In this document: positions 11,811 through 58,882 of the stretch, one piece after another
Layout: every line of letters begins with the position of its first letter
Numbering within the stretch: the stretch's first letter is position 1
Source of the DNA: Octopus vulgaris
Lineage: Eukaryota
Length of the DNA: 64,000 nucleotides
Assembly (NCBI GenBank): GCA_951406725.2
Contig: OX597818.1
Coordinates: 116,498,001 to 116,562,000 of the forward strand
Direction: 5' to 3'
Notes under the pieces: generated by a model
What the model was told of the DNA's origin: nothing
The model's database searches: none
The model's input: the letters and a program-made list of their open reading frames with translations, nothing else
Program-made: the position numbers and the translations under genes

Positions 11811-12200
11811 CTAGCAGTATCGCCCGGCGTTGCACGGGTTTGTAAGGGAAATAACTATAAAGCATTTTTAGAGTTATAGCCAAAAATTAGCAAAAAATGC
11901 ATTAAAAATGGAAAAAAAAATATGGTAAATTTTTTTAAAAATCGTTGACCTATCGTAGATATTTTTAGAGAGTTACTTCCCTTATATTAAAAAAATATGC
12001 ATTAAAATGGAAAAAATGATGGTAAATTATTTTTTAAATCGTAGACTCATCGTAGACGCGCGCTTATACCCAGAAGGGCTCGATATGAATCACGACTATA
12101 AGATACTCGGTTTTGGTTAAACTGCACCGCAAAATGTGAGAGTAGTTAGGAATCTAAATGGGAGTAGACAGACACACAACCTTTCTTTTATATATAAAGA
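11811..12200 (-). mobile_element. Non-autonomous Helitron
   Basis: Minus strand starts A|TCTTTATATAT and ends with hairpin CCCG-TGCAACGC-CGGG, about 9 nt, then CTAG|T. Confidence 0.8.
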
Positions 12201-12533
12201 TAAAGTATATACTTTTATATCTACACCTATCATTTTAAGGAAATTAATTCTCATAAGATTCTAGGTGTTGAACCGGTATGTTTTGGATGAAACCATCTCA
12301 TTATGAAGATAACATAACCTCAAATCGAATATATATATATATATAATTTTAAATTAATAATAAAAGGGTAAAATTTATTAATTAGATTAATTAATTAATT
12401 AATCAATTACTTAACAATTTTACCAAGTAGATCGGTACGTCATAGAGATTATTATAGCTGTAGAAAAATGAATTTTTAACTCTTTTTTCTAATTTTGGTA
12501 TGTGGTGAAGCAGTTAACTGAACTCTAATTATA

Positions 12534-12583
<50 letters not shown>

Positions 12584-13350
12584 TGTTGAGCTTTTTTTGT
12601 CCCTCATAACCATTTGACTACAGTTTTTTTAAAGGTCGCTGTAAGTTAGCGGCAAAACAAAAGGGACCCGATTGGCTAGATACCGGGATTGTTTGAAAAC
12701 GAGTACTCGGGCCTATCTATTCGACGTTACCATTCAAGGCGGTGCTCCAGTATGGCCATAGTTCAATGAGTGAAACAGGTAAAAGATATATATATGTCAG
12801 TACATATGAATATATATGCGTACATCTTTATTTTCTCTCTCTATACACACACACACACACACACACTCACATATATATATATATAATAACTAATTATATA
12901 TTATTTTTTACAATAATTAAAGAGATTAATTCTAAACAAGTGACTGAAATAAGATAGCCCAAACCACCGGGAATTGAACACAGCATTTGCACTTACTTGG
13001 CTCCGTACGCACCCAAATCAACCACATAGCTCACCCATCAATTGCTTTCAAATTCAACGTATAGATATTTTATATGTATATAAATTAACATGTATGGAAA
13101 TTTGAAATGATTTTCTCACCAGCTGGTGTTTTAAATTAGAAATTCAAACAGCTCATTATCTTTACAGATAAAAATTCTGACACATAAATTAATGAACGAA
13201 TTTATTGAGTTAGGTTCAAACATTACAATTTACAAAAATTATGTAATGGATAAATATTCAACAGATTCTAAATATTTGAAAAAGCACTTTCTTTCATGTA
13301 GACTGGCAGAGACAAAAACACCCACAAGTTTTAATTACTTGTCTGTTAGG

Positions 13351-13519
<169 letters not shown>

Positions 13520-13582
13520 ACATATATATATACACATACATACATACATACATATATACTATACATATATATATATAGTTGT

Positions 13583-13742
13583 GGGCGCAGGCGTGGCTGT
13601 GAGGTAAGAAGCCTGCTTCCCGACAACATGGTTCTGGTTTCAGACTGCCTCCGTGGCACATTCGTCACATGTCTTTTAATATACCCTCGGGCCAACCCTA
13701 GCCTTGTGAATGGATTCGGTAGACGGAAACTGAAGGGATCCC

Positions 13743-13795
<53 letters not shown>

Positions 13796-13985
13796 ATGTA
13801 TGTTTGTTATTTGTGTTTGTCTCCAGACCCTCACTTGACAACCGATGATGGTGTGTTTAAGTCTCCGTCACTTAACGGTTCGGCAGGTGCTACCGATAGA
13901 ATAAGTACTAGGCTTACAAAGAATAAGTCCTGGAGTCGATTTGTTCGACTAATGGTTGTGCTTGACAGAAACAAGTAAAAGAATA
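13583..13985 (+). mobile_element. SINE family B, full length
   Basis: GGCGCAGGCGTGGCTGTG head, internal (TA)n, and 3' ACCGATAGAATAAGTACTAGGCTTACAAAGAATAAG. Confidence 0.85.
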
Positions 13986-14054
13986 TATATATAACTTGTT
14001 TCATTCATTTGACTGCGGCCTTGGGTTTCAAGGGCCCACAGCTTTTCAATTTCC

Positions 14055-14620
14055 TTGTAGATCCAGTTTTGTTTTCAAAAAGCCTACATCCACGCCGTGC
14101 AAGTCTCTCAGTTTTTGTGCAGATATATTGAAGAGATCTGGGCCATTGAAACCCAAGCTGTTGCGGTATCTGGTCCTGCATCACAATAACAATGTTGAGA
14201 ACTTTGGTACCATGCAGTAGCACGCTGTCCTGCTGCTTGTGTAAGTGACAATGTCTAAATTTGGAACAAGTTTTTCTAGGATTTTCAAGATGTATATTAA
14301 TGCATATCTTTCCCTCCTTCGCTCAAGAGAGTAGAGTCTTAATTCTTTCAGCCTCTCAGTAGATGATACGTCGCATTGTATCGATCTTCCTTGTGTAGCT
14401 TCGCTGGATCGCCCCGAGGTCCGTCGTTATTTTACACTGGTGAGCACAGTTGGGAGTAATAATCCAGACGGTTGAGAATAACCAAGGGGTTACTTTTTAT
14501 GGTTACTTTTTATCTTGTTTTGAAAGTTCGAAGGATCCACCCGGCCAGACATCTGCATTTTATTGCTGACTTAGTAATGTGCACCTGGAAAGATGCATCA
14601 TTACTTATATCGATGCATAT
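14055..14620 (-). mobile_element. CR1/L2-type LINE RT C-terminal fragment
   Basis: Minus-strand translation GWILRTFKTR...LDYYSQLCSP...IQRSYTRKI...ERLKE..LYSLERRRERY...KILEKLVPN. Confidence 0.75.
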
Positions 14621-14621
14621 A

Positions 14622-15923
14622 TTGGATCATCCCATAAATAATGCGTTTTTTATACTTCTTTTATTTATCAAAATTAAGATAAAAGTCTTTTTAAATCTTA
14701 TATATATTCTCTATCATTTTCTATAATGCTCTTCAATCTAGTTGGTATATCTTTCTTTATGAGTTCAGTAGAGGCTCCTCTTCCAAAATTCAATTGTCCG
14801 TGACAAAAAATACTCCACCAGTACTGTTCTCACCTCGTCTATAGAATTCATATTTTTTCCGTACAAATGATTATGAAGACTGCGGAACAAATGACAAAGG
14901 GATGAGGCAATGTCCGGTGAATATTGTGGCTGGGGCATCGTTTGCCATTGGAAAGCACCAGCCATTGGAATGTCATCCTTGCTGTATGTGGCCAAGCATT
15001 ATCCTGATGGAAGAATACCTTTCGTCTTGAAACCAAAGATGGTCGTTTTTCTTCTAGCTCTGACTTAAGCTGCTCAAACTGCTCGCGTGAGATCTCCTTT
15101 GTTATCGTTTGGTTTAGGTTTTAAAGTTCAAAGTAGACTAAACCTTTCATATCCCACCAAACCGATAATAATAATTTACGTGGGTGAAGACCTTCTTTAG
15201 CCTGGGTTGCCAGTGTTTCTCCTTTACTTACCCGCTTGTTTCAGGGCTTGACATTTTGTATAGAGAACCTATTTCTCGTCACCAGACACTATTCGATCCC
15301 CAAAAAGTTCATTCGTGAGACATAGCAACAAAGAACAGAATTTCACACTCTGTGTGCAATTAGACTGGGAAAGTTTGTGAAGAATCCATTGACGCAATTT
15401 GCTGACTTTTCCGATGGCACCCGGGTGTCGATAAATGGCTGAAAGACCGAATCCAAGCTTCTCTGCTAGTTTCTCAACAGTTACGACGAGATTTTGTCCC
15501 GCCAGGGTTTGCAGGATGTCCTCGTCGAGTTCTATAGATCTTCTAGGACGATGCTCGTCTTTTAGGCTATAGTTTCCGGCTCGGAATTTCTGGAACCACC
15601 GTTAACATTGGCTTACACTTATTGTCATATCCCCATATACTACATTAATATTCCTTGCACTTTCCGTTGCATTATTGCATTTTTATAACTCATAAAGCAA
15701 TATATACCGAATATGCTCCTGAATTACTTCTATTGCAGCTTAGAAAAAATATCTGCTAAAATCGAACTGCACTCTTTAAAACTTGCACTAAGAATAAATA
15801 CAAAGTAAAATTACTACCTGCTTTAATAGCAAATTGATGCAGGTATTTTGTCCCCTCCCGTTCCGACTTTTAGCTTTTAGTTCATACAAATGAAAAAACC
15901 GTATTATTTATGGGATGACCTTA
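14622..15923 (-). mobile_element. Mariner DNA transposon, decayed transposase
   Basis: TIRs TTGGATCATCCCATAAATAATGCG / CCGTATTATTTATGGGATGACCTTA with flanking TA; length 1.3 kb; motifs IVSGDEK, FHQDNAWPH, PQYSPDIAS with stops and frameshifts. Confidence 0.92.
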
Positions 15924-16519
15924 TATATATATATATATATATATACATGTGTGTGTAAGCAAATATGTATATGTATATAAATATATGCATTACCCATTTC
16001 AACGTTTTTGAGTATAGTCCATTACGTATTAATATCTATTTTGATGTGGTGTATTAATTATTTTTCCATTTGTTTTGTTACATATTGAGCGTACGAACAC
16101 TGACAAAGCTTGAGATAAATAAGGAGCTACATGGTAAGCACTCAGGCATCATAAAGAGTTGAACTTCATGTGGCTTTGTTATGAGTCCCCGGTGCAAAAT
16201 ATCTTACAGGGGCTGAAACTGAGTAGGGGAAAAGAATATCTAAGATTATTCTAAGTAAAAGCTGTTAGGTTCAATTAAGTGATTGTATAAATTTGCAGCA
16301 TTTCTTTGGATACTCTTCAGAGTGGCGACAATTGGTCAAGAAATGTGATCTGGCATTTAGTTGTCCATTCATTGTTGTAACATTCTTGAGGACGACAAAA
16401 GATTTAGTTATATACGCTCCCAATTTTCTGCACCACTTCTAAATTTTCTGCTCTATTGAGAATATTTCACTTTCATAGCCAATGTTGTAGTCTGTAATTT
16501 CAATAACAAGACATATTCA

Positions 16520-17090
16520 AACTCTTTATTTTGATGTGGTGTGAAAGAAAGAAAGTTGTAAATATAGTCGAGCTAACGGTTCCTCATGAAGATAATATGG
16601 ACGCCGCTCGGGCTCGAAAATTGAACCATTATGTAAACCTCCTCGAGGAATGTGAAGACGCAGGCTGGAAAGCGGAACATTTTCCTATCGAAGTCGGATG
16701 TAGAGGATTTGTTGGACACAGCGTGAGACGACTGTTGTTATCGCTAGTCCTAACTCATCGTAAAGTCAATACCACCATGACTGATATCCAATCTACAGTG
16801 GAGAAGGCTAGCCACTGGATTTGGTTAAAAAGAGACGATGAGCGATGGCTAGAAGGATATTTAGTTTAACTTTATAACCAGCTGATCTAGCAAGCGGGGC
16901 TTCATATCAGTGAGGGGGGGGGGGGTGCGCATTGATGCTGTCGAGAGGTAGGCCCCAAAACGGCGCGCATTCTCTCCCGATGACCCCATACACTTGCTGG
17001 TTTCCGGTATACGGAGCTTTTGACTGGTAGCACTTGCATGTGCAAGTTGTTTGCAAGACATGTAATGATTTATCTTGAACTTGTAACAAA
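16520..17090 (+). mobile_element. Hero/NeSL-like RLE LINE 3' fragment
   Basis: ORF 16531-16869 IVELTVPHE..K..HY..L..PIEVGCRGF...ASHWIWLKR, followed by a GC-rich 3' UTR. Confidence 0.85.
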
Positions 17091-17327
17091 TATCATGTAG
17101 TTTACCTTTTGAGTTTCACCCTATACAATGATGCCTGGTCAGTTTGTATCGTTGATAAGTGATTGAGCGTTGAATAATGAGAGACGCCTGCATATTTCCG
17201 TTTATGCGGGTAAACGCAGTTACTACAGATGTTTTGCGTCTGTACGAAGTTTCTTTATGTTTTAATAACGGAATAAAGTTGTTTTAAAGTTTACTTGTAT
17301 TAAGTAAATTTCGGTTAATGAAGAATT

Positions 17328-17558
17328 CTTTTATTCTTTTATTTGTTTCAGTCATTTGACTGTGGCTATGCTGGAGCACCGCCTTTAGTCGAGCAAATCG
17401 ACCCCATGACTTATTGTTTGTAAACCTAGTAGTAATTATTCTATCGGTTGCTCTTGCCGAACCGCTAAGTGAAGAGGACATAAACACACTAGCATCGGTT
17501 GTCAAGCGATTTTGGGGGACAAATACAGACACACAAACATATACACACACATATATAT

Positions 17559-17612
<54 letters not shown>

Positions 17613-17775
17613 GACGGGCTTCTTTCAGTTTCCGTCAACCAAATCCACTCACAAGGCTTTTGTCGGCTTGTGGCTATAGAAGAAGACACTTTCCTAAAGT
17701 GCCACGCAGGGGGACTGAACCCGGAACCATGTGGTTGGTAAGCAAGCTACTTACCAAAGAGCCACTCCTACGCCT
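17328..17775 (-). mobile_element. SINE family B, full length
   Basis: Reverse complement of the family B pattern, including the internal (TA)n. Confidence 0.88.
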
Positions 17776-18104
17776 ATGTTTATACTTTCCTTTAATTAAA
17801 TTAGAAAGTTTTTAACAATATTAGACTTAACATTTGCCAAGAAAGTAATTATGAAACAGATAATAATACTGCAGATTTATTTACTGTTAGATAAACGAAG
17901 TGTTATGTAAATGTATATCCTCATTCTTTAATCTGCTATCAGTTAGAGTTTTATTGTGTAATAAAGCAAGCTGCATAGCTTCATACACACACATAAACAG
18001 AAAATGTGATCACAGACACACACGCGCACACACGAATTCACATACATATGCTTGGTGCATAGAGTATACACGTCCATGATAGCTTCATACACCCATGCGC
18101 CTTT

Positions 18105-18137
<33 letters not shown>

Positions 18138-18503
18138 TCTGATAGCTTCATACACGCAAACATCAGATAGGTTCAGATTGATGCACACGGCTCTACATAC
18201 GTATACACAAGCATAAACATGCGACGTATATACATATAAATTGTTTCATACAAACACTCGTACTTGTTCTTACACACATGCACATACACTCGCGCACGCC
18301 CACTCACAAGTAAACACACACAATTGCTCCATACCCACCTACTGGCAAACAAACATGCATATACACACTCACGAACGCCTGTACACACACACATCACCAC
18401 CCACACCTCAAGCCATGTTCCTCTTCCAGTTCTTTCAGTATGTGGTTACCGTCTAAATGAGATAGGTTTTTGTTTTCCATTCCTCTCTTCTTCTCTCATC
18501 TTT

Positions 18504-18541
18504 TCTTTCTGTAGAAGAACATAGGTTCGAAGCGTTAAATA
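18504..18541 (+). ncRNA. Variant hammerhead (CUGUNGA family), decayed
   Basis: TCTTT CTGTAGA A GAAC-ATAG-GTTC GAAG CG TT AAATA. Confidence 0.5.
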
Positions 18542-18637
18542 CCTCTACCAATTTTCCTCAGCGTCAACTTTATACACTATATGTATTCTTTTACCTCATC
18601 TCGAATTTCTTGTCTTTGTACTATGTATATATATATA

Positions 18638-21322
18638 TATCAAACTAAAGTTATAGAACAAACAAATGCAAGATCATCCAATAACATTTCATAACTCGAA
18701 CATTTAATCATAGAATATACATTTAGACATCACGGAAGATGGAATATAATTCATCTGTACAAGCATATAAGAAAGTGCGAGAAAAAATGTTTGAATATAT
18801 GTGAATACAGTTCATCACGGTTAAAAGTTAATACTTTAGCGATTAAGAAAAAAAAAAATTTTTTTAAACCATTACAACACTTAGAAGGTAAAACGTAAAA
18901 ATATAGTATAAAGTAATATATAAATACATAGGTATATACAATATATAAAAATATATAAATATAGGAAGCAAATAAAAATATATAATATATAATGTAAAAT
19001 AAAATAAATGTTCATCGTTTAGAAAATCTTATAAAATTACTTATCGAATAAGAGAGGCCTTATAGTTAAAAAAGAGGAAACCATATTTACTAAATTCCCT
19101 ATGGCCATTTCGGGGGTATATTATTGTGTTTAAAGCACTAGGGTGCATCACGCTAATAACTCCTTCGTCAGGAGAAAAAATAGAGAGACAGACATCATCG
19201 CGTAGCAAGCTTAACACAATATTGTATGTTTTCTTATTGAAGCAGTCATGCTCAGACGAGCCCAGAAGAAAGAATTAAAGCAGTAAAAAAATTTATTTTA
19301 TATAAAGCAGTAGAAAAATAAAGCAGTAAAAAAAAAAAAAAAATAAAATGGGTGTATTAAATTAAATTAAATTAAATTAAATTAAATTAAATTGAACCTC
19401 CGTGGTTTCAAACCCTATAAGATCTAAACTATTTATTTTCTACGACTTATTTTATTTCTATACATTTTCAAAAATGTAGAAGAAAATTTATGGATGCAAA
19501 AGGGAATCACATCAGTAAATTTATTCAAAATGTGCGGTCCATAACACCTAAGGATGGTAAGGGATTCCCTTATGCACAGATTACACCTCTTAATATTTCC
19601 CTTGAAATTTGGGGTTTTAGAGATAATGGACCATTCTAGATAATAATTCTTATTATTTTTCTTTAAATTGTGTATATGGGATGCAAGTGTTGTAGAATTA
19701 CAGTATTTATTGATAGAAAAAGAGCTCATATGTGATCTATATCTAGCCTTAAAATCTACTGTGCTACCTGTATAAAATTTATTTAACCTATCCTCGTCCT
19801 TGACTACACATTTATATATAACGTTAGTAACTAGACAGGAACCATCTAAAGGGCATAATTCGGGGTTTCTACAATTACATTTCTTTCCGGGGCCTTTCCT
19901 AGTTTTATTTCTATTGTTATCTTTACATTTTGTGTCTCCAGTTCTAGGACAAGTTTCCCTCTTTCATTCCATCAAATCTTCCCTTATTACATGGGTTCGA
20001 TAGATCCCGTAAAGGCAGACTGCTTGTAGCATTGGCATTAGGCGTTACAAAATTATTATACGCAGTTCCTTGGTCATCCTCAAAAGAACTTTTCCAGCTA
20101 TTCCGCCCAGAAATAGCTTGCTTCTATTGATTGATGCAATAATCGAAGCAATAATCGAAGCAAAGTTAGGCATTACAGAGTAAGAGAACTTAATCGCTGA
20201 TTTGTTGCAAATGCTATAGTATTTATGATTCTTTGGGAAGTTCTCCTTCAGAATTCTAAAAAACATTTTTGGTAAGTTCTTTACTCTAAGGGAGAAAGGG
20301 GGAGCGAACCAAACAACTTCCCTTATTCTAGATCGTGAATCTCCTGTTTTGTTTAACTCCTTGTCAAAATTATTAATTTTCTTATACCTGTACCTATTGC
20401 GAGTATCCCTAAACACATTACTACCCAAGGGCCTCCTATTATTGCAGTTGGGGGGTACACTGCATGTATTCATAGTATTTGTGACGTGCTTAAATGGCAA
20501 ACCAGCCATTTTGTTTTTGAGTCTAGTATTAAGGATATAAAATATTTTAGATTTGAAACCACTTAATCTTAGGGCATTATTATACACCGGTGCATGCTGT
20601 TCAAAATATTTTCATTCGCAGATAAGTTAGATATTCTAGTTGAAATCGCCGTAACGATGCTGTCTATTGTGAATTTTGGGTGATTGGATGATACATTAAT
20701 ATATGATATTGAATTATTAGGCTTACGAAAGGGATAATAGAGACCGGTATTTAGACACAAGGTAACATCCAAAAAGTTTACCACCCTAGAATTAATGTTG
20801 AAGATAATGTCAAGATTAAAAAAGTCCCTCAAGAAGCTTCTCAGCGATTTCTTTAATATGTTTAATTCCGTCTTCGAGAGGCCCAGCACGGCAAAAAGGG
20901 CATCATCTTATTCGATAAGTAATTTTATAAGATTTTTTGAACGATGAACCTTTATTTTATTTTACATTATATATTATATATTTTTATTTGCTTCCTATAT
21001 TTATATATTTTTATATATTTTTATATACCTATATATTTATATATTACTTTATACTATATTTTTACGTTTTACCTTCTAGGTGTTGTAATGGTTTAAAAAA
21101 AAATATTTTTCTTAATCGCTAAAAGTATTAACTTTTAACCGTGATGAACTGTATTCACATATATTCAACATTTTTTCTTGCACTTTCTTATATGCTTGTA
21201 CAGATGAATTATATTCCATCTTCCGTGATGTCTAAATGTATATTCTATGATTAAATGTTCGAGTTATGAAATGTTATTGGATGACCTTGCATTTGTTTGT
21301 TCTATAACTTTAGTTTGATATA
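18638..21322 (-). mobile_element. Penelope-like retroelement (Neptune-type), 5'-truncated, with inverted pseudo-LTR
   Basis: RT C-terminus VNFLDVTL..FRKPN..YINVSSNHP (20569-20889); WFAPPFS linker; Cys-rich CPLDGSC plus GIY-YIG (VIYKC..FYTGST..FKARYRSH..CNLCIRE) at 19433-19880; 18638-19052 repeated inverted at 20907-21322. Confidence 0.92.
19095..19176 (-). ncRNA. Hammerhead ribozyme in the Penelope pseudo-LTR
   Basis: TTCTC CTGACGA A GGAGTTATT...AATAATATACCCCC GAAA TGGCCA TA GGGAA; palindromic stem III. Confidence 0.8.
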
Positions 21323-21427
21323 TTTGTCTCATTCAATTGAGCACTTTTATAGCAGTCCTATTCAACATTTTGTTCCTAATAAGAAACAATCACTGTATTA
21401 TTGATATATATATATATACATACACAC

Positions 21428-31609: not shown

Positions 31610-31640
31610 ACATCATTTTTGTTCTGTTTTCGATTGTATT

Positions 31641-46984: not shown

Positions 46985-47312
46985 AGTTGGCGAGCTGGCG
47001 GAATTGTTAACATACCGGGAAAATTGCTGAGCGGTATTTCGTCTGCCGTTACGTTCTGAGTTCAAATTCCGCCGAGGTCGACTTTGCCTTTCATCCTTTC
47101 GGAGTCGATTAACTAAGTACCAGTTACGCACTGGGATCGATATAATCGACTTAATCCGTTTGTCTGCCCTTGTTTGCCCTCTATGTGTTTAGCCCCTTAT
47201 GGGTTGTAAAGAAATAGGTATTTCCTCCTATACGTTCTGAGTTCAAATTCCACCGAGGTCGACTTTGCCTTTCATCCTTTCGGGGTCGATAAATCAAATA
47301 CCAGTTGAACAC
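46985..47312 (+). mobile_element. SINE family A, 1.5-mer
   Basis: Head plus core, then a second B-box and core. Confidence 0.88.
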
Positions 47313-48103
47313 TGATAATATATTTCTCTATTTCTTTTATAAAATAAATATATCTATACTGTTGGCGTGATACGAACTCAGAAACTTCGAGAGAACGTGA
47401 AATGACTCCCTGTTTGTATGATGGGTCTCGAAGCAGACGACATACGCATACAGACAACGTTCGATTTTTTCAGGCCAAATGGTTCTTTAAACCCAATACA
47501 TACCAGCTTTTGTTTATGGATTGGGTGGTAGAGAGCTACCGTTTCAAGAGGAAAATAAACGTGCACAAACGAGTCACCAAAATAAAACACCATGAGAGAA
47601 ATAGTAAACGAAGTTAGGAAACAATAAATTTTTAATCTACAGGGAAGTCACGTGGTTTGTGTTTGATGTTGGAGTCTCGCTCAGTGAATTTGCAGGATTA
47701 TTAACTAATATATGTAACCCCAGCCAATACCATACACACGCTCACACATTCATATAAATTCATCGAAATAATACTTAGGGGATTTTCGCTATGAAAATCA
47801 AACTCATACTCACACACGAAAGCTCGCAGGTGGAAACATTCTTCCTTCGCCATATTTATCTTCATTATACAGTTCTTTCATTGTTATCTTATTGTTCTAC
47901 GTATCTTTAATCACACGATTTTACCTGTCTGAATCAAACTATAAATTGTTTATTTGTCTCTTCCTTTCTTCATAAACTTACTCATCTTCAGTGTTTAATT
48001 TATGTATATTTATATGCAATACACCACGCAAACAAATTGCTGCTATTTACGGATTAACCATATGAGCTATACGCACCTCTCTCATATCCTCTGACTCTCT
48101 CTC

Positions 48104-49426: not shown

Positions 49427-49431
49427 TACGT

Positions 49432-49484
<53 letters not shown>

Positions 49485-49723
49485 ATTTTATGTATATATA
49501 TGTATATATGTATATATATATCTGTATGTATGTACGTATATATATATATGTACCTATATATACATGTATATTTGTATATATATATACATATATATATATA
49601 TCAACAATCAAGGAACGGCCATAATAGGCCATTCACCCACTAGAAATAACAGCCAAAGCTTCAACCGCAAATAAAAATTAATTCCGTAAACCAGGAGAAA
49701 ATTTAAAAAACATTTACCCTGTA

Positions 49724-49830
49724 ATTTCTTATACGATATACCGTTTCATCTGCTGATTAATGGTAAACTAACCTGATTAAATTAAATCAAGCCAATCTTC
49801 CAAAGGCCCTCAGATTCTTCAGTAAGAAAT
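49724..49830 (-). ncRNA. Type I hammerhead ribozyme (left array, copy 1)
   Basis: Reverse complement of the 50973-51079 motif. Confidence 0.9.
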
Positions 49831-50215
49831 AGCCCAAGTCGGAACAGATATTTTCACGAGGCATTTCCGACCTTGCCAAGTTTATATCTGACCTAAAATT
49901 TTCAAATCGTCGCACTCGCGCCAAATTTATCGGCAGCAAATAAATATAAGCCGTCGATTCCATTACGGAATTAACCAGAAAATTCATAATTAATCAATAT
50001 AGGGTGGCAAAAAAAATTTTGTAGAATTCTTTTGCCACCAGCGGCCTAGTGGGAAAAAATTAAATAGTCATAGACCATTTTTAAGTTCAACATCAACAAT
50101 CAAGGAACGGCCATAATAGGCCATTCACCCACTAGAAATAACAGCCAAAGCTTCAACCGCAAATAAAAATTAATTCCGTAAACCAGGAGAAAATTTAAAA
50201 AACATTTACCCTGTA

Positions 50216-50322
50216 ATTTCTTATACGATATACCGTTTCATCTGCTGATTAATGGTAAACTAACCTGATTAAATTAAATCAAGCCAATCTTCCAAAAGCC
50301 CTCAGATTCTTCAGTAAGAAAG
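50216..50322 (-). ncRNA. Type I hammerhead ribozyme (left array, copy 2)
   Basis: Reverse-complement copy with one substitution at the distal end of stem I (50322) and one in the stem II insert. Confidence 0.88.
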
Positions 50323-50972
50323 AGCCCAAGTCGGAACAGATATTTTCACGAGGCATTTCCGACCTTGCCAAGTTCATATCTGACCTAAAATTTTCAAATC
50401 GTCGCACTCGCGCCAAATTTATCGGCAGCAAATAAATATAAGCCGTCGATTCCATTACGGAATTAACCAGAAAATTCATAATTAATCAATATAGGGTGGC
50501 AAAAAAAATTTTGTAGAATTCTTTTGCCACCAGCGGCCTAGTGGGAAAAAATTAAATAGTCATAGACCATTTTTAAGTTCAACATCAACAATCAAGGAAC
50601 GGCCATAATAGGCCATTCACCCACTAGAAATAACAGCCAAAGCTTCAACCGCAAATAAAAATTATTTCTAGTGGGTGAATGGCCTATTATGACCGTTCCT
50701 TGATTGTTGATGTTGAACTTAAAAATGGTCTATGACTATTTAATTTTTTCCCACTAGGCCGCTGGTGGCAAAAGAATTCTACAAAATTTTTTTTGCCACC
50801 CTATATTGATTAATTATGAATTTTCTGGTTAATTCCGTAATGGAATCGACGGCTTATATTTATTTGCTGCCGATAAATTTGGCGCGAGTGCGACGATTTG
50901 AAAATTTTAGGTCAGATATAAACTTGGCAAGGTCGGAAATGCCTCGTGAAAATATCTGTTCCGACTTGGGCT

Positions 50973-51079
50973 ATTTCTTACTGAAGAATCTGAGGGCCTT
51001 TGGAAGATTGGCTTGATTTAATTTAATCAGGTTAGTTTACCATTAATCAGCAGATGAAACGGTATATCGTATAAGAAAT
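50973..51079 (+). ncRNA. Type I hammerhead ribozyme, intact core
   Basis: Stem I ATTTCTTA(50973-80)/TAAGAAAT(51072-79); core CTGAAGA 50981-87; stem II ATCTG..CAGAT with long insert; GAAA 51056-59; stem III CGGT-AT-ATCG; GUA cleavage after 51071. Confidence 0.9.
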
Positions 51080-51464
51080 TACAGGGTAAATGTTTTTAAA
51101 TTTTCTCCTGGTTTACGGAATTAATTTTTATTTGCGGTTGAAGCTTTGGCTGTTATTTCTAGTGGGTGAATGGCCTATTATGGCCGTTCCTTGATTGTTG
51201 ATGTTGAACTTAAAAATGGTCTATGACTATTTAATTTTTTCCCACTAGGCCGCTGGTGGCAAAAGAATTCTACAAAATTTTTTTTTGCCACCCTATATTG
51301 ATTAATTATGAATTTTCTGGTTAATTCCGTAATGGAATCGACGGCTTATATTTATTTGCTGCCGATAAATTTGGCGCGAGTGCGACGATTTGAAAATTTT
51401 AGGTCAGATATAAACTTGGCAAGGTCGGAAATGCCTCGTGAAAATATCTGTTCCGACTTGGGCT

Positions 51465-51571
51465 ATTTCTTACTGAAGAATCTGAGGGCCTTTGGAAGAT
51501 TGGCTTGATTTAATTTAATCAGGTTAGTTTACCATTAATCAGCAGATGAAACGGTATATCGTATAAGAAAT
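51465..51571 (+). ncRNA. Type I hammerhead ribozyme (next tandem copy)
   Basis: Same motif 492 bp downstream; predicted cleavage after 51563. Confidence 0.9.
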
Positions 51572-51795
51572 TACAGGGTAAATGTTTTTTAAATTTTCTC
51601 CTGGTTTACGGAATTAATTTTTATTTGCGGTTGAAGCTTTGGCTGTTATTTCTAGTGGGTGAATGGCCTATTATGGCCGTTCCTTGATTGTTGATGTTGA
51701 ACTTAAAAATGGTCTATGACTATTTAATTTTTTCCCACTAGGCCGCTGGTGGCAAAAGAATTCTACAAAATTTTTTTTGCCACCCTATATTGATT

Positions 51796-51869
<74 letters not shown>

Positions 51870-51909
51870 TGTTTATATATAAATATGTTTATATATATAT
51901 GTGTGTATA

Positions 51910-51952
<43 letters not shown>

Positions 51953-52734: not shown

Positions 52735-53695
52735 ATGAAATATACGAGAGTTTATTATTAATCACGACAATTGTTTCCACACACCTATCATCGACCCCTC
52801 ACGCTTGGGACCCTCTATAATTCGTTCAGGAGCATGCGCCGGTGCAGATGTATCTCATTGCATGATAGACACGACTCGTAAAAATATATATGTAATTTCG
52901 CACAATGCAGCGGGAACGAATTTACTTTAAGGTATGGATGTCTTAAGTTTACTATTAAATCTCCCCGTTCTTAGAAACACCAAGTAGATAGTTAACTCGC
53001 ATTGTAATCTTGAGTGGAGCAAACCTCACGTGTGCGTATGCTCACATTATCGTGGATGCTTGTATCAGCAACTACACTCGCGCCGTGCGGCTTGCTCGAA
53101 GGCGTTTATACATCCATATTTGTTAACAGCTATTTTAACTAATTTTCTCGCTGGATTGCGTGCTCGTTTCTCTTTTCTCTATCTGTGATTTCAATTTTGA
53201 TCTTCTATACAAATGATATTTCCTCTGTCTGACTGCATTTATTTCGATCCAAACTAGAAATTATATTGCGGAACTGTTATTTTAACGAGTGGTATTTATT
53301 TATAAAGGCGGCGAGCTGGCAGAAATGTTAGCACGCGGGGCGAAATGCTTAGCGGTATTTCCGCTGCCGCTACGTTCTCAGTTCAAATTCCGTCGAGGTC
53401 GACTTTACCTTTCATCCTTTCAGGGTCGATTAAATAAGTACCAGTTACGCACTAGGGTCGATATAATCGACATAATCCGTTTGTCTGTCCTTGTTTGTCC
53501 TCTCTGTGTTTAGCCACTTGTGGGTAGTAAAGAAATAGGTATTTATTTATCACTCGACAAGATACATCCGCATCGCCGGATGCTTCTGAACCAGTTTTTG
53601 AGTGTCCCACCAGTGAGAGATCGATGGTAGATGTGTCGCAATAATTGTCGTGATTAAGAATAAATACCCGTATATACTATCTTATGTTTTTCATT
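52735..53695. mobile_element. Old inverted pair of long-stem-II hammerhead repeats with a SINE A (53305-53540) between them
   Basis: 52761-52866(-) and 53549-53654(+) give consensus ATCAC YYGAYGA GATACATC..GATGTGTC GAAA CAATTG TC GTGAT. Partial third copy near 61420-61490(-). Confidence 0.6.
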
Positions 53696-54945: not shown

Positions 54946-55545
54946 TTATTTTTGACTTTTACTTTCATACAAGTTGGCTTCAAGTCTCACCCAGAGACCT
55001 CAAGAGACAACAAGTTAGAAGTTCATGTTGGTGTTATGCTTAGGGTGTGAAATATTTGGTTTTGTACAAAGTATTTTTCTAGAGAATGTTTAAGAAATCA
55101 TAAGAAAATAATGAGATTGTTTTAAAATTTGAGATTACATAGTCAGTATTTTACGTAGGATATACCCATGTGCACTATCTTCTGAATTTCTGTCATTTTG
55201 GGGTTTCCTGGTATCTGAGCTAGGTAGCAATCAGCCCCTTTTGCTACCATTCCTCAGGGCACCTATGATAACAGGTATTGTTTTAGTCTTCAGGTTCCAC
55301 ATTTTTCCAATTTCTATTTCAAGATTTTTATATTTGCTCAGTTTTTGGTAGCTCTTGACAGATGCGTTTATATCGATTGGGACAGTCATATCAATGAGGA
55401 GGCATGATTTTTCTCTGAAGTCTTTCAATATGATGTCTTGCCTATTCGCATCTATCATTCTGTCAGTTTGAATGGTGAAGCTCCAGAGGAGTGAGATGTG
55501 ATCAATTTTAAGCACTGGAGGTGGTTTGTGTTCCCATACCATTGG
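54945..55545 (-). mobile_element. R4/Dong-like LINE 3' fragment
   Basis: WEHKPPPVL..LLWSFTIQTDRMIDANRQDII..CLLIDMTVP..KLSKYKNLEIEI..PVIIGAL, then a UTR and (AAT)n tail. Confidence 0.85.
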
Positions 55546-55609
55546 GCAGGTCCACGTTTTTGCAAATTAACCCTTATTAACATTATCATAATTATTATCA
55601 TCATTATTG

Positions 55610-55680
<71 letters not shown>

Positions 55681-55682
<2 letters not shown>

Positions 55683-55895
55683 GGTGGATGAATTAGCAGA
55701 ATCGTTAGCACGCTGGGAGGAATTCGCATTGGTATTTCGCCCATCGCTACGTTCTGAGTTCAAATTCCACCGAGGTCGACTTTACCTTTCATCCTTTTGA
55801 CGTCGATAAAATAAGTACCAGTAATTCACTGGGGTCGATGTAATCGATTTACCCTTTCCTCGAAATTGCTTGCTTTTCGCCAAAAGTTGAAATCC
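55681..55895 (+). mobile_element. SINE family A
   Basis: Head, B-box GAGTTCAAATTCC, core, and ATT tail. Confidence 0.85.
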
Positions 55896-56181
55896 TTATT
55901 ATTATTATGTTTAATGTTGTTTTTGTTGTTTTTCTTTTTTCGTTATATCACATATAATTAAGATTTTTGCTCTTTCCCGAAAATTCTTACGGAAAGTAAC
56001 AGCATCGAAGAATTTTAGTTATTGCAGTTGTCTTTTTAGAATTGGAATTCACTGTTTGTTGGAGGAATTGTCTAAAACTCACATCTAAAACTCAAACACA
56101 CATCGCACATACACATATACATACATCACACATACATATACATATACATCACACAAACGCACAAGCACACATTTGTATGTA

Positions 56182-56224
<43 letters not shown>

Positions 56225-56621
56225 GTGTGTGTGTGTGTATGTGTGTGTGAGCGACACAAAGAAATCTCACATATATAAAGAGACAAATACTACTTTGGTG
56301 CTTCGAGGGAAAAACACAAGAAGATAGCAGAGAAAAATCAAGAAGAACATTTCAAAAGAAAACTTAAAATGTGGAAACGCAAACATATCTCTTTTCTTTG
56401 TATAGACAGCCATAACACAGAAGCTTGCGAAATGACAGAATCTTATATTCGCCATTAGATTTCCATGTCTGCATTTAAAAAGGCATCTTATGACGGAGGT
56501 TGTAAAACGCTTCTAAACACAGCACTAATAATATTGGAGTACTGCCTTTTTTTTTGTCTTTTTAGTAGATAAGAGTATAACATTTCAAGACAAGCTACTG
56601 CTGCTGCTGCTGCTGCTGGTG

Positions 56622-56685
<64 letters not shown>

Positions 56686-56829
56686 CACTACTATTAATAA
56701 TAATAATAATAACAATAATGATGATGATGATGATGATGATAACAACTGCAGCAACAACAACAACAACAAGCACAACAACAAAAAAAAAACAAAAACAACA
56801 GCAACAACAACAACAATAATAATAATAAT

Positions 56830-58882
<2,053 letters not shown>

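Follow-up and report, generated by a model that had tools for sequence, protein, structure and literature searches.

The insertion of 492-bp units and its hammerhead motifs

Repeat and unit mapping of the window (the whole stretch of 64,000 nt that was analysed) placed an insertion at 49600-51797 that consists of two divergent arms, each with its 3' end pointing outward into (TA)n. Tandem Repeats Finder identified 492-bp arrays at 49600-50668 (2.2 copies) and 50662-51797 (2.3 copies) with 99% matches, and the left and right arms are 99% reverse-complementary, which bears out the original prediction of a 492-bp repeat in two inverted tandem arrays within (TA)n. The (TA)n target tracts, delimited with the same program, lie at 49431-49601 on the left and at 51799-51952 on the right. 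The predicted unit length of 492 bp holds for the arrays and for the spacing of the cut sites, but some units measure 493 bp, the difference arising from homopolymer runs. Units are numbered from the first base 3' of the predicted hammerhead cut, which is window position 51072. In this numbering the left arm (49600-50664, minus strand, 2.18 units) has its outer 3' end at unit position 131, referred to as site A, and its inner 5' end at about 47-51. The right arm (50662-51797, plus strand, 2.31 units) has its outer 3' end at position 234, in the zone of site B that usually ends at 238, and its inner 5' end at 82. In the sequence of the arm-arm junction (50662-50668) an exact overlap of 3 nt (TTA) was found, or of 7 nt with one mismatch. 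The predicted monomer between two predicted cuts (51072-51563, plus strand) has a length of 492 nt and a GC content of 36%, and its longest ATG-led frame has 66 codons. Elsewhere in the window, a short interspersed repeat is present at 47001-47314 and 53322-53544 (88-92% alike), and the region 55231-58674 presumably holds fragments of a LINE-like reverse transcriptase and endonuclease.

A structural scan for hammerheads, covering the whole window on both strands with stems summing to at least 12 bp, resulted in five matches, four of them in the insertion and one weak and unrelated at 31623 with a stem I of 4 bp. The plus-strand motifs lie at 50973-51079 and 51465-51571, with predicted cuts after 51071 and 51563, and the minus-strand motifs at 50216-50322 and 49724-49830, with H17 at 50224 and 49732; the spacing is 492 nt on either strand. 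One type I hammerhead per unit, two per strand, with plus-strand sites 492 nt apart had indeed been predicted. The canonical core (CUGAAGA, GAAA and a GUA site) was likewise found in every motif, whereas the 8-bp stem I claimed for all copies is reduced to 7 bp in the copy at 50224. Stem III consists of 4 pairs including A15.1-U16.1, and stem II of a 5-bp base plus an extension of about 58 nt. The combination of a CUGANGA, GAAA and NUH core, three stems and an open stem I is that of the type I definition. The search with the Rfam hammerhead models that had been proposed as a check gave no match, neither at the gathering score nor at E≤10, likely because stem II is long. In constrained folding, the energy of the hammerhead fold exceeds the minimum by 1.8 kcal/mol for the isolated motif and by 2.5 kcal/mol in the circle, so that this fold is predicted to be accessible, yet not to be the ground state.

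The genome contains 628 exact copies of the window's core 18-mer but none of its reversed control, which excludes a chance origin of the motif. The core is intact in 224 of 236 units, and 11 of the 16 changes fall at the free positions N7 and H17. A comparison of 17 hammerhead variants shows a core that is invariant except at N7, where all four bases occur, at H17, which is A or C, and at the pair 10.1-11.1 (G/A or C/U); in stem II one compensatory pair was found and 96.6% of cells are paired. As these variants are closely related, the conservation is only modest evidence of selection. According to the available text of 10.64898/2026.07.22.740005, eight of nine predicted Xenopus retrozymes remained uncleaved in vitro, which, like the single covarying pair and the non-minimal fold, counts against the reading as an active retrozyme.

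Searching the genome (2.8 Gb in 227 contigs) for similar DNA yielded 979 candidates, 40 of which received a score. If N7 is any of the other three letters, the core is found 1,418 times; sampled copies of this kind mostly fall into older subfamilies of about 87-94% identity. Together with the 628 exact cores this amounts to at least 2,046 hammerhead-bearing units. Exact junctions of the B end with (TA)n were counted 769 times, a lower bound on the number of insertions, so that the expectation of further genomic copies is amply confirmed. The youngest subfamily is represented by 33 loci on contigs C1 and C2 (441 Mb), which extrapolates to about 210 genome-wide. Divergence between units of one locus is 0-0.41% in 39 of the 40 loci with enough overlap. 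The unit is non-coding, with no ATG-led frame above 66 codons, its GC content is below the 45-50% used as a retrozyme criterion, and it is dispersed in many copies. An ORF for RT plus GIY-YIG is absent from the insertion, which sets it apart from autonomous Penelope-like elements (PLEs). The earlier description as a young, multi-copy, non-coding hammerhead tandem repeat is thus supported, and by its sequence the element is best classified as a non-LTR retrozyme with predicted self-cutting. A monomer of this length is not exceptional, as had been thought, since vertebrate retrozyme families span 51-972 bp (10.64898/2026.07.22.740005).

Two paired outer ends and a probable single template for both arms

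For mapping on the unit, 72 stretches were used, comprising the window, the 39 best-scoring loci and 32 position-sampled loci. Matches below 88% identity and clusters shorter than 150 nt were dropped, and locus L039 was split in two at (TA)n, which resulted in 73 insertions. Their outer ends are A and B in 52 insertions, B and B in one and A and A in none; in 19 one end, and in one neither end, could be classified. Hence, where both ends were classified, one lies at about 131 and the other at about 238 in 52 of 53 insertions, and the sole exception (L024) has a separate A arm of 105 nt at a distance of 508 nt. The position-sampled set from chromosomes 1 and 2 (n = 33) contains 25 A/B pairs, no same-type pair and 8 one-ended insertions. 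Independent priming would give same-type pairs in about half of the cases, from which the observed pairing departs with p = 6e-15. All 54 inserts with two strands are divergent, and a plus arm followed by a minus arm is seen nowhere but between the two L039 insertions. At three loci that look one-armed (L101, L108 and L111), the B arm is a stub of about 16 nt. For the complete set of 57 exact B junctions on C1, collected without hammerhead selection, the adjacent inverted arm had its end at A in 39 cases, at B in 0 and at another position in 6; in 12 cases no such arm was detected.

Both sites have the sequence TTGATT-N4-AT 3' of a predicted hairpin and are 107 nt apart, a stretch equivalent to the tail of PLEs. 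In a unit of the right arm, site A (51168-51202, plus strand) comprises a predicted 8-bp hairpin and the motif ending at 131, and site B (51255-51309, plus strand) a predicted 13-bp hairpin and the motif ending at 238; they are the putative RT start sites 1 and 2. Inner ends, on the other hand, are scattered: the two arms meet with anything from an overlap of 19 nt to a filler of 105 nt (54 junctions), and arm lengths vary from 0.03 to 9.4 units. The window copy, with A at left, B at right and a 3-nt overlap, is typical of the family. The mirror shape is the normal integration footprint of the whole family, and an inverted 5'-truncated copy with a one-sided tail, a criterion for non-autonomous PLEs, is present in it. 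This footprint supports the original proposal of mobilisation by a Penelope-like RT, and the retrozyme is very probably moved by a PLE. Priming of one RNA at two coupled sites is likely as well, with somewhat less certainty. A collision of the RT at the opposite start site left no arm-specific signal, as ends at 200-260 were found in 14 of 70 A arms and 13 of 76 B arms; the hairpin at 200-260 offers homology for arm ends. Fillers were not significantly enriched at junctions near the cut site (10/23 versus 14/53, p = 0.18).

The two arms of one locus carry the same variants. At 11 polymorphic sites in 54 loci they agree in 450 of 455 comparisons, whereas shuffled arm pairs agree with a mean of 0.60 and a maximum of 0.74 (2000 shuffles); 15 haplotypes were distinguished across 68 loci. 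Rare variants occupy every unit of both arms, for example 7/7 units in L059 and 4/4 in L124. A second, independent set (71 loci) contains 26 rare variants fixed within a locus, and 21 of these are present across both arms. Each arm of L107 and of L128 contains sequence missing from the opposite arm, which indicates that neither arm is a DNA copy of its counterpart.

This bears on two further explanations of the inverted arm, namely snap-back self-priming (on cDNA or on an antisense template), a mechanism put forward for rotifer PLEs (PMC3846280), and a fold-back artefact of long reads. Some junctions do lie in hairpins or palindromes where the two inner ends coincide (L037, L138 and L162). Most junctions are offset, however, the arms end at different fixed sites and may hold sequence absent from the other arm, and the two flanks are distinct. 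Snap-back or artefact is the least probable of the explanations considered, with almost no weight left to it.

Variants found in at least 4 loci fill all units in 134 of 153 locus-cases, and private variants are confined to a single unit in 105 of 125. This pattern is the prediction of a bottleneck at the monomer that is followed by repeated copying. A>G changes are more frequent among locus-fixed rare than among single-unit variants, with 7/16 versus 10/154 in the first set, 5/26 versus 1/82 in the independent set and 12/42 versus 11/236 when pooled. The enrichment may reflect RNA editing or an error bias of the RT. A strand-specific footprint of A-to-I editing was not borne out, as the strand bias of the first set (A>G 7 versus T>C 2) was not replicated in the independent set (5 versus 5). 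A source-daughter pair was not found, the three candidate variants being located on different haplotypes. Haplotype sharing could partly come from one master locus being active at a time, but a single master locus would not give locus-private variants in both arms.

In a different origin, an autonomous PLE would have supplied the units as fragments of its pseudo-LTR, to be multiplied by local unequal exchange as in the satellite model of 10.64898/2026.07.22.740005, and the inversion would be a later rearrangement of the DNA. Homology between pseudo-LTRs and retrozymes in Xenopus, reported in the same source, is in line with it, as are a few loci with mosaic variants or internal rearrangements (L036 and L113). 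On the other hand, unequal exchange explains neither the fixed complementary ends nor the strict divergence nor the mutually exclusive arm sequence. Moreover, no PLE coding sequence continuous with the unit was found: tblastn matches in 6 of 111 loci are separate neighbours, and 28 more loci gave 0. For the 492-bp family the satellite model is largely refuted and is considered highly unlikely. In L113 (4723-5291) a jump from position 139 to 392 occurs twice inside one arm, which suggests a deleted template or template switching.

Template form, predicted fold and the search for a partner

The cut site was crossed with exact length in 314 of 316 cases. Arms that stop within 41 nt downstream of the cut, a stop window picked after the data were seen, are in excess both in the first pass (16/74 versus about 7.5% expected) and in later passes (19/149 versus 6.2% expected, p = 0.002). 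A first-pass stop of the B arm near the cut is always accompanied by one of the A arm (table 4, 3, 0, 20; n = 27; p = 0.002). In the first, hammerhead-selected set, which excludes most short arms, stops near the cut are weakly raised. The first-pass excess suggests that cut linear monomers serve as templates and is thereby indirect evidence for cleavage in vivo. The later-pass excess argues against a purely closed circle, and it could be explained by re-cutting of the circle, by pausing of the RT or by the AT-rich palindromes at 17-35.

These stops are also what two-ended priming by a PLE on linear RNA would leave, with cleaved monomers giving short arms and partly cleaved multimers or template jumps giving long ones. 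Joint first-pass stops of A and B arms are expected from one linear cut molecule, and unprocessed RNA was the main substrate of the anole PLE Poseidon_Ac (PAc) in vitro (PMC11167929, available text). Linear multimers should, however, transmit mosaic units, yet shared variants are fixed in most loci and private ones fill both arms. Likewise, template jumps should leave scars, yet nearly all crossings are exact, and arms could not outgrow their source. Linear RNA as the template throughout is unlikely, although it is more plausible than unequal exchange or snap-back. For the multimeric arms, a covalent circle is modestly favoured as the main template.

In the predicted fold of the entire 2.2-kb locus, 96% of bases are paired, and both plus-strand hammerheads pair solely with the antisense arm and find no partner inside the ribozyme. 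The suggestion that the mirror arrangement releases the same 492-nt RNA upon read-through from either direction is not supported, given this predicted duplex fold and the family-wide footprint. Judged from the fold, read-through RNA would more likely form a long duplex that traps the ribozymes than yield monomers, and productive transcripts would presumably need an internal start or one-armed source loci.

A Penelope-like element in the window had been put forward as candidate partner. It is a fragment at 18635-21404 (minus strand), 5'-truncated and frameshifted, with the end of the RT, a Cys linker and GIY-YIG, a hammerhead-like motif near 19100-19175, and a 421-nt inverted copy in (TA)n with the two ends about 86 nt apart. 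This candidate was rejected: its hammerhead is different and it has no sequence similarity to the 492-bp unit, with which it shares only the shape of an inverted copy plus tail. A full frame of 806 aa of the same family is present in L080, a PLE locus with two hammerhead types (L080:528, 1849 and 4919), one before and one after the ORF.

Two more young autonomous PLE families of the genome were sampled. One of them (L285-L291) has intact frames of 727 aa, fixed ends 70 nt apart in (TA)n and a compact hammerhead-like motif seen by eye. In all three of its two-armed loci with both ends seen (L266, L290 and L291), there is one end per arm. Sequence matches between this family and the unit are weak (E 0.004-0.03) and not in register. 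The integration footprint thus also occurs in coding PLEs of this genome, among the few families sampled.

No autonomous PLE with clear homology to the unit was identified in 121 PLE-bearing stretches, which represent few families among 12,000-20,000 candidates per query, and three PLE protein queries together with the flanks of retrozyme loci gave no partner by sequence. A relaxed hammerhead pattern resulted in 28 matches, all of them older subfamily copies and none a partner. Pfam assigned no family to two long PLE frames, and its sole match for the window fragment, to GIY-YIG, stayed below the threshold. Further observations concern other elements. A very young PLE family X (L214-L243, L274) has many copies that are 99-100% identical in the endonuclease; its repeat of about 3.3 kb is largely microsatellite-like and in L274 appears by eye to embed an old, retrozyme-like two-armed relic, which blastn did not report. 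At L039 (2408-5326), one (TA)n tract next to a PLE holds a pair of adjacent retrozyme insertions that belong to different subfamilies (99% and 91%). At L280 (5778-7465), a two-armed hammerhead repeat that is unrelated, with units of about 536 nt, neighbours a PLE.

Combining the footprint, the variants and the junctions, the insertion is read, with a probability of roughly 70%, as a young hammerhead retrozyme whose arms were written by a borrowed PLE RT-endonuclease on one, probably circular, 492-nt RNA. In this mechanism a multi-unit locus would be transcribed and the monomer would be cut out by its hammerheads, of which the motif and its conservation are observed. The monomer would subsequently be circularised or held end to end, as suggested by the seamless multimers and the variant patterns. 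A PLE protein, probably a dimer, would bind the RNA and cut both strands of (TA)n, the observed target with its fixed ends. From one DNA end copying would start at A (about 131) and from the other at B (about 238), each round the template for the arm lengths recorded in the footprint. The two cDNAs would finally be joined head to head via the microhomology or short filler seen at the junctions. The most specific version, in which two coupled RT subunits, one locked to A and the other to B, copied a single RNA circle and each insertion preserves the outcome, is tentative and given somewhat less than even odds.

Comparison with retrozymes and Penelope-like elements

Non-LTR retrozymes, their circRNAs and the hypothesis of a PLE partner have been published (PMC7229834; 10.64898/2026.07.22.740005; PMC7761336). 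The enzyme that moves retrozymes and its template are open in this literature: PLEs are called a "strong candidate" (PMC7229834) and the mechanism "remains to be elucidated" (10.64898/2026.07.22.740005). Also open is the origin of the inverted repeats and tail of PLEs (10.1101/2021.04.23.441226). The word "inverted" is absent from the available text of PMC7229834; in that of 10.64898/2026.07.22.740005 it stands only in a reference title, and the word "tail" does not occur. In freely accessible main texts, no published report of a two-armed footprint in a retrozyme was found.

Hundreds of young polymorphic copies provide a footprint at nucleotide level, with two start sites, strict pairing and one haplotype per insertion, and make both questions assayable with the 492-nt RNA, a (TA)n target and intact PLE proteins of the same genome. 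If the reading with coupled subunits on a circle is true, it would be genomic proof that retrozyme circles are templates of PLE transposition. It would also explain the inverted repeat and the one-sided tail of PLEs in one step, and RNA-stage changes, possibly A-to-I edits, would be written into every unit.

The class of element is already known, and the 492-bp family is an ordinary member of the non-LTR retrozymes; what is notable is an unusually legible integration footprint. Like the metazoan non-LTR retrozymes, for which a circRNA template and a PLE partner have been proposed (PMC7229834; PMC7761336; 10.64898/2026.07.22.740005), it consists of low-GC non-coding tandem units with one type I hammerhead each, arranged as dimers to multimers at many loci. 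Unlike them, it has a long stem II extension, and its insertions in (TA)n are two-armed and divergent, with a fixed pair of outer ends. Cleavage and circles, which are predictions for the 492-bp family, have been demonstrated for the retrozymes of that literature.

An inverted copy and a one-sided tail are hallmarks of PLEs (10.1101/2021.04.23.441226; PMC3846280). With the endonuclease-bearing PLEs described there, the family shares the head-to-head inverted copy, partial tandems, a tail at one end, the preference for (TA)n and a hammerhead in the repeat. It differs from them in the lack of an ORF, a tail of 107 nt compared to 30-40 nt, multimers in both arms and a full instead of a minimal hammerhead. 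The closest biochemical parallel concerns PAc, which according to the available text of PMC11167929 cuts and extends both strands in vitro, has two internal start sites that bound the tail, is predicted to form a dimer and does not depend on hammerhead cleavage. Two internal RT start sites bounding a tail, here putative, and an AT-rich target are common to both systems. Target and start sites of the 492-bp family have 2-5 nt of AT in common, and short pairing may contribute to the use of these sites. In PAc the start sites are used alike on both strands in vitro, whereas the 492-bp family uses one of each per insertion.
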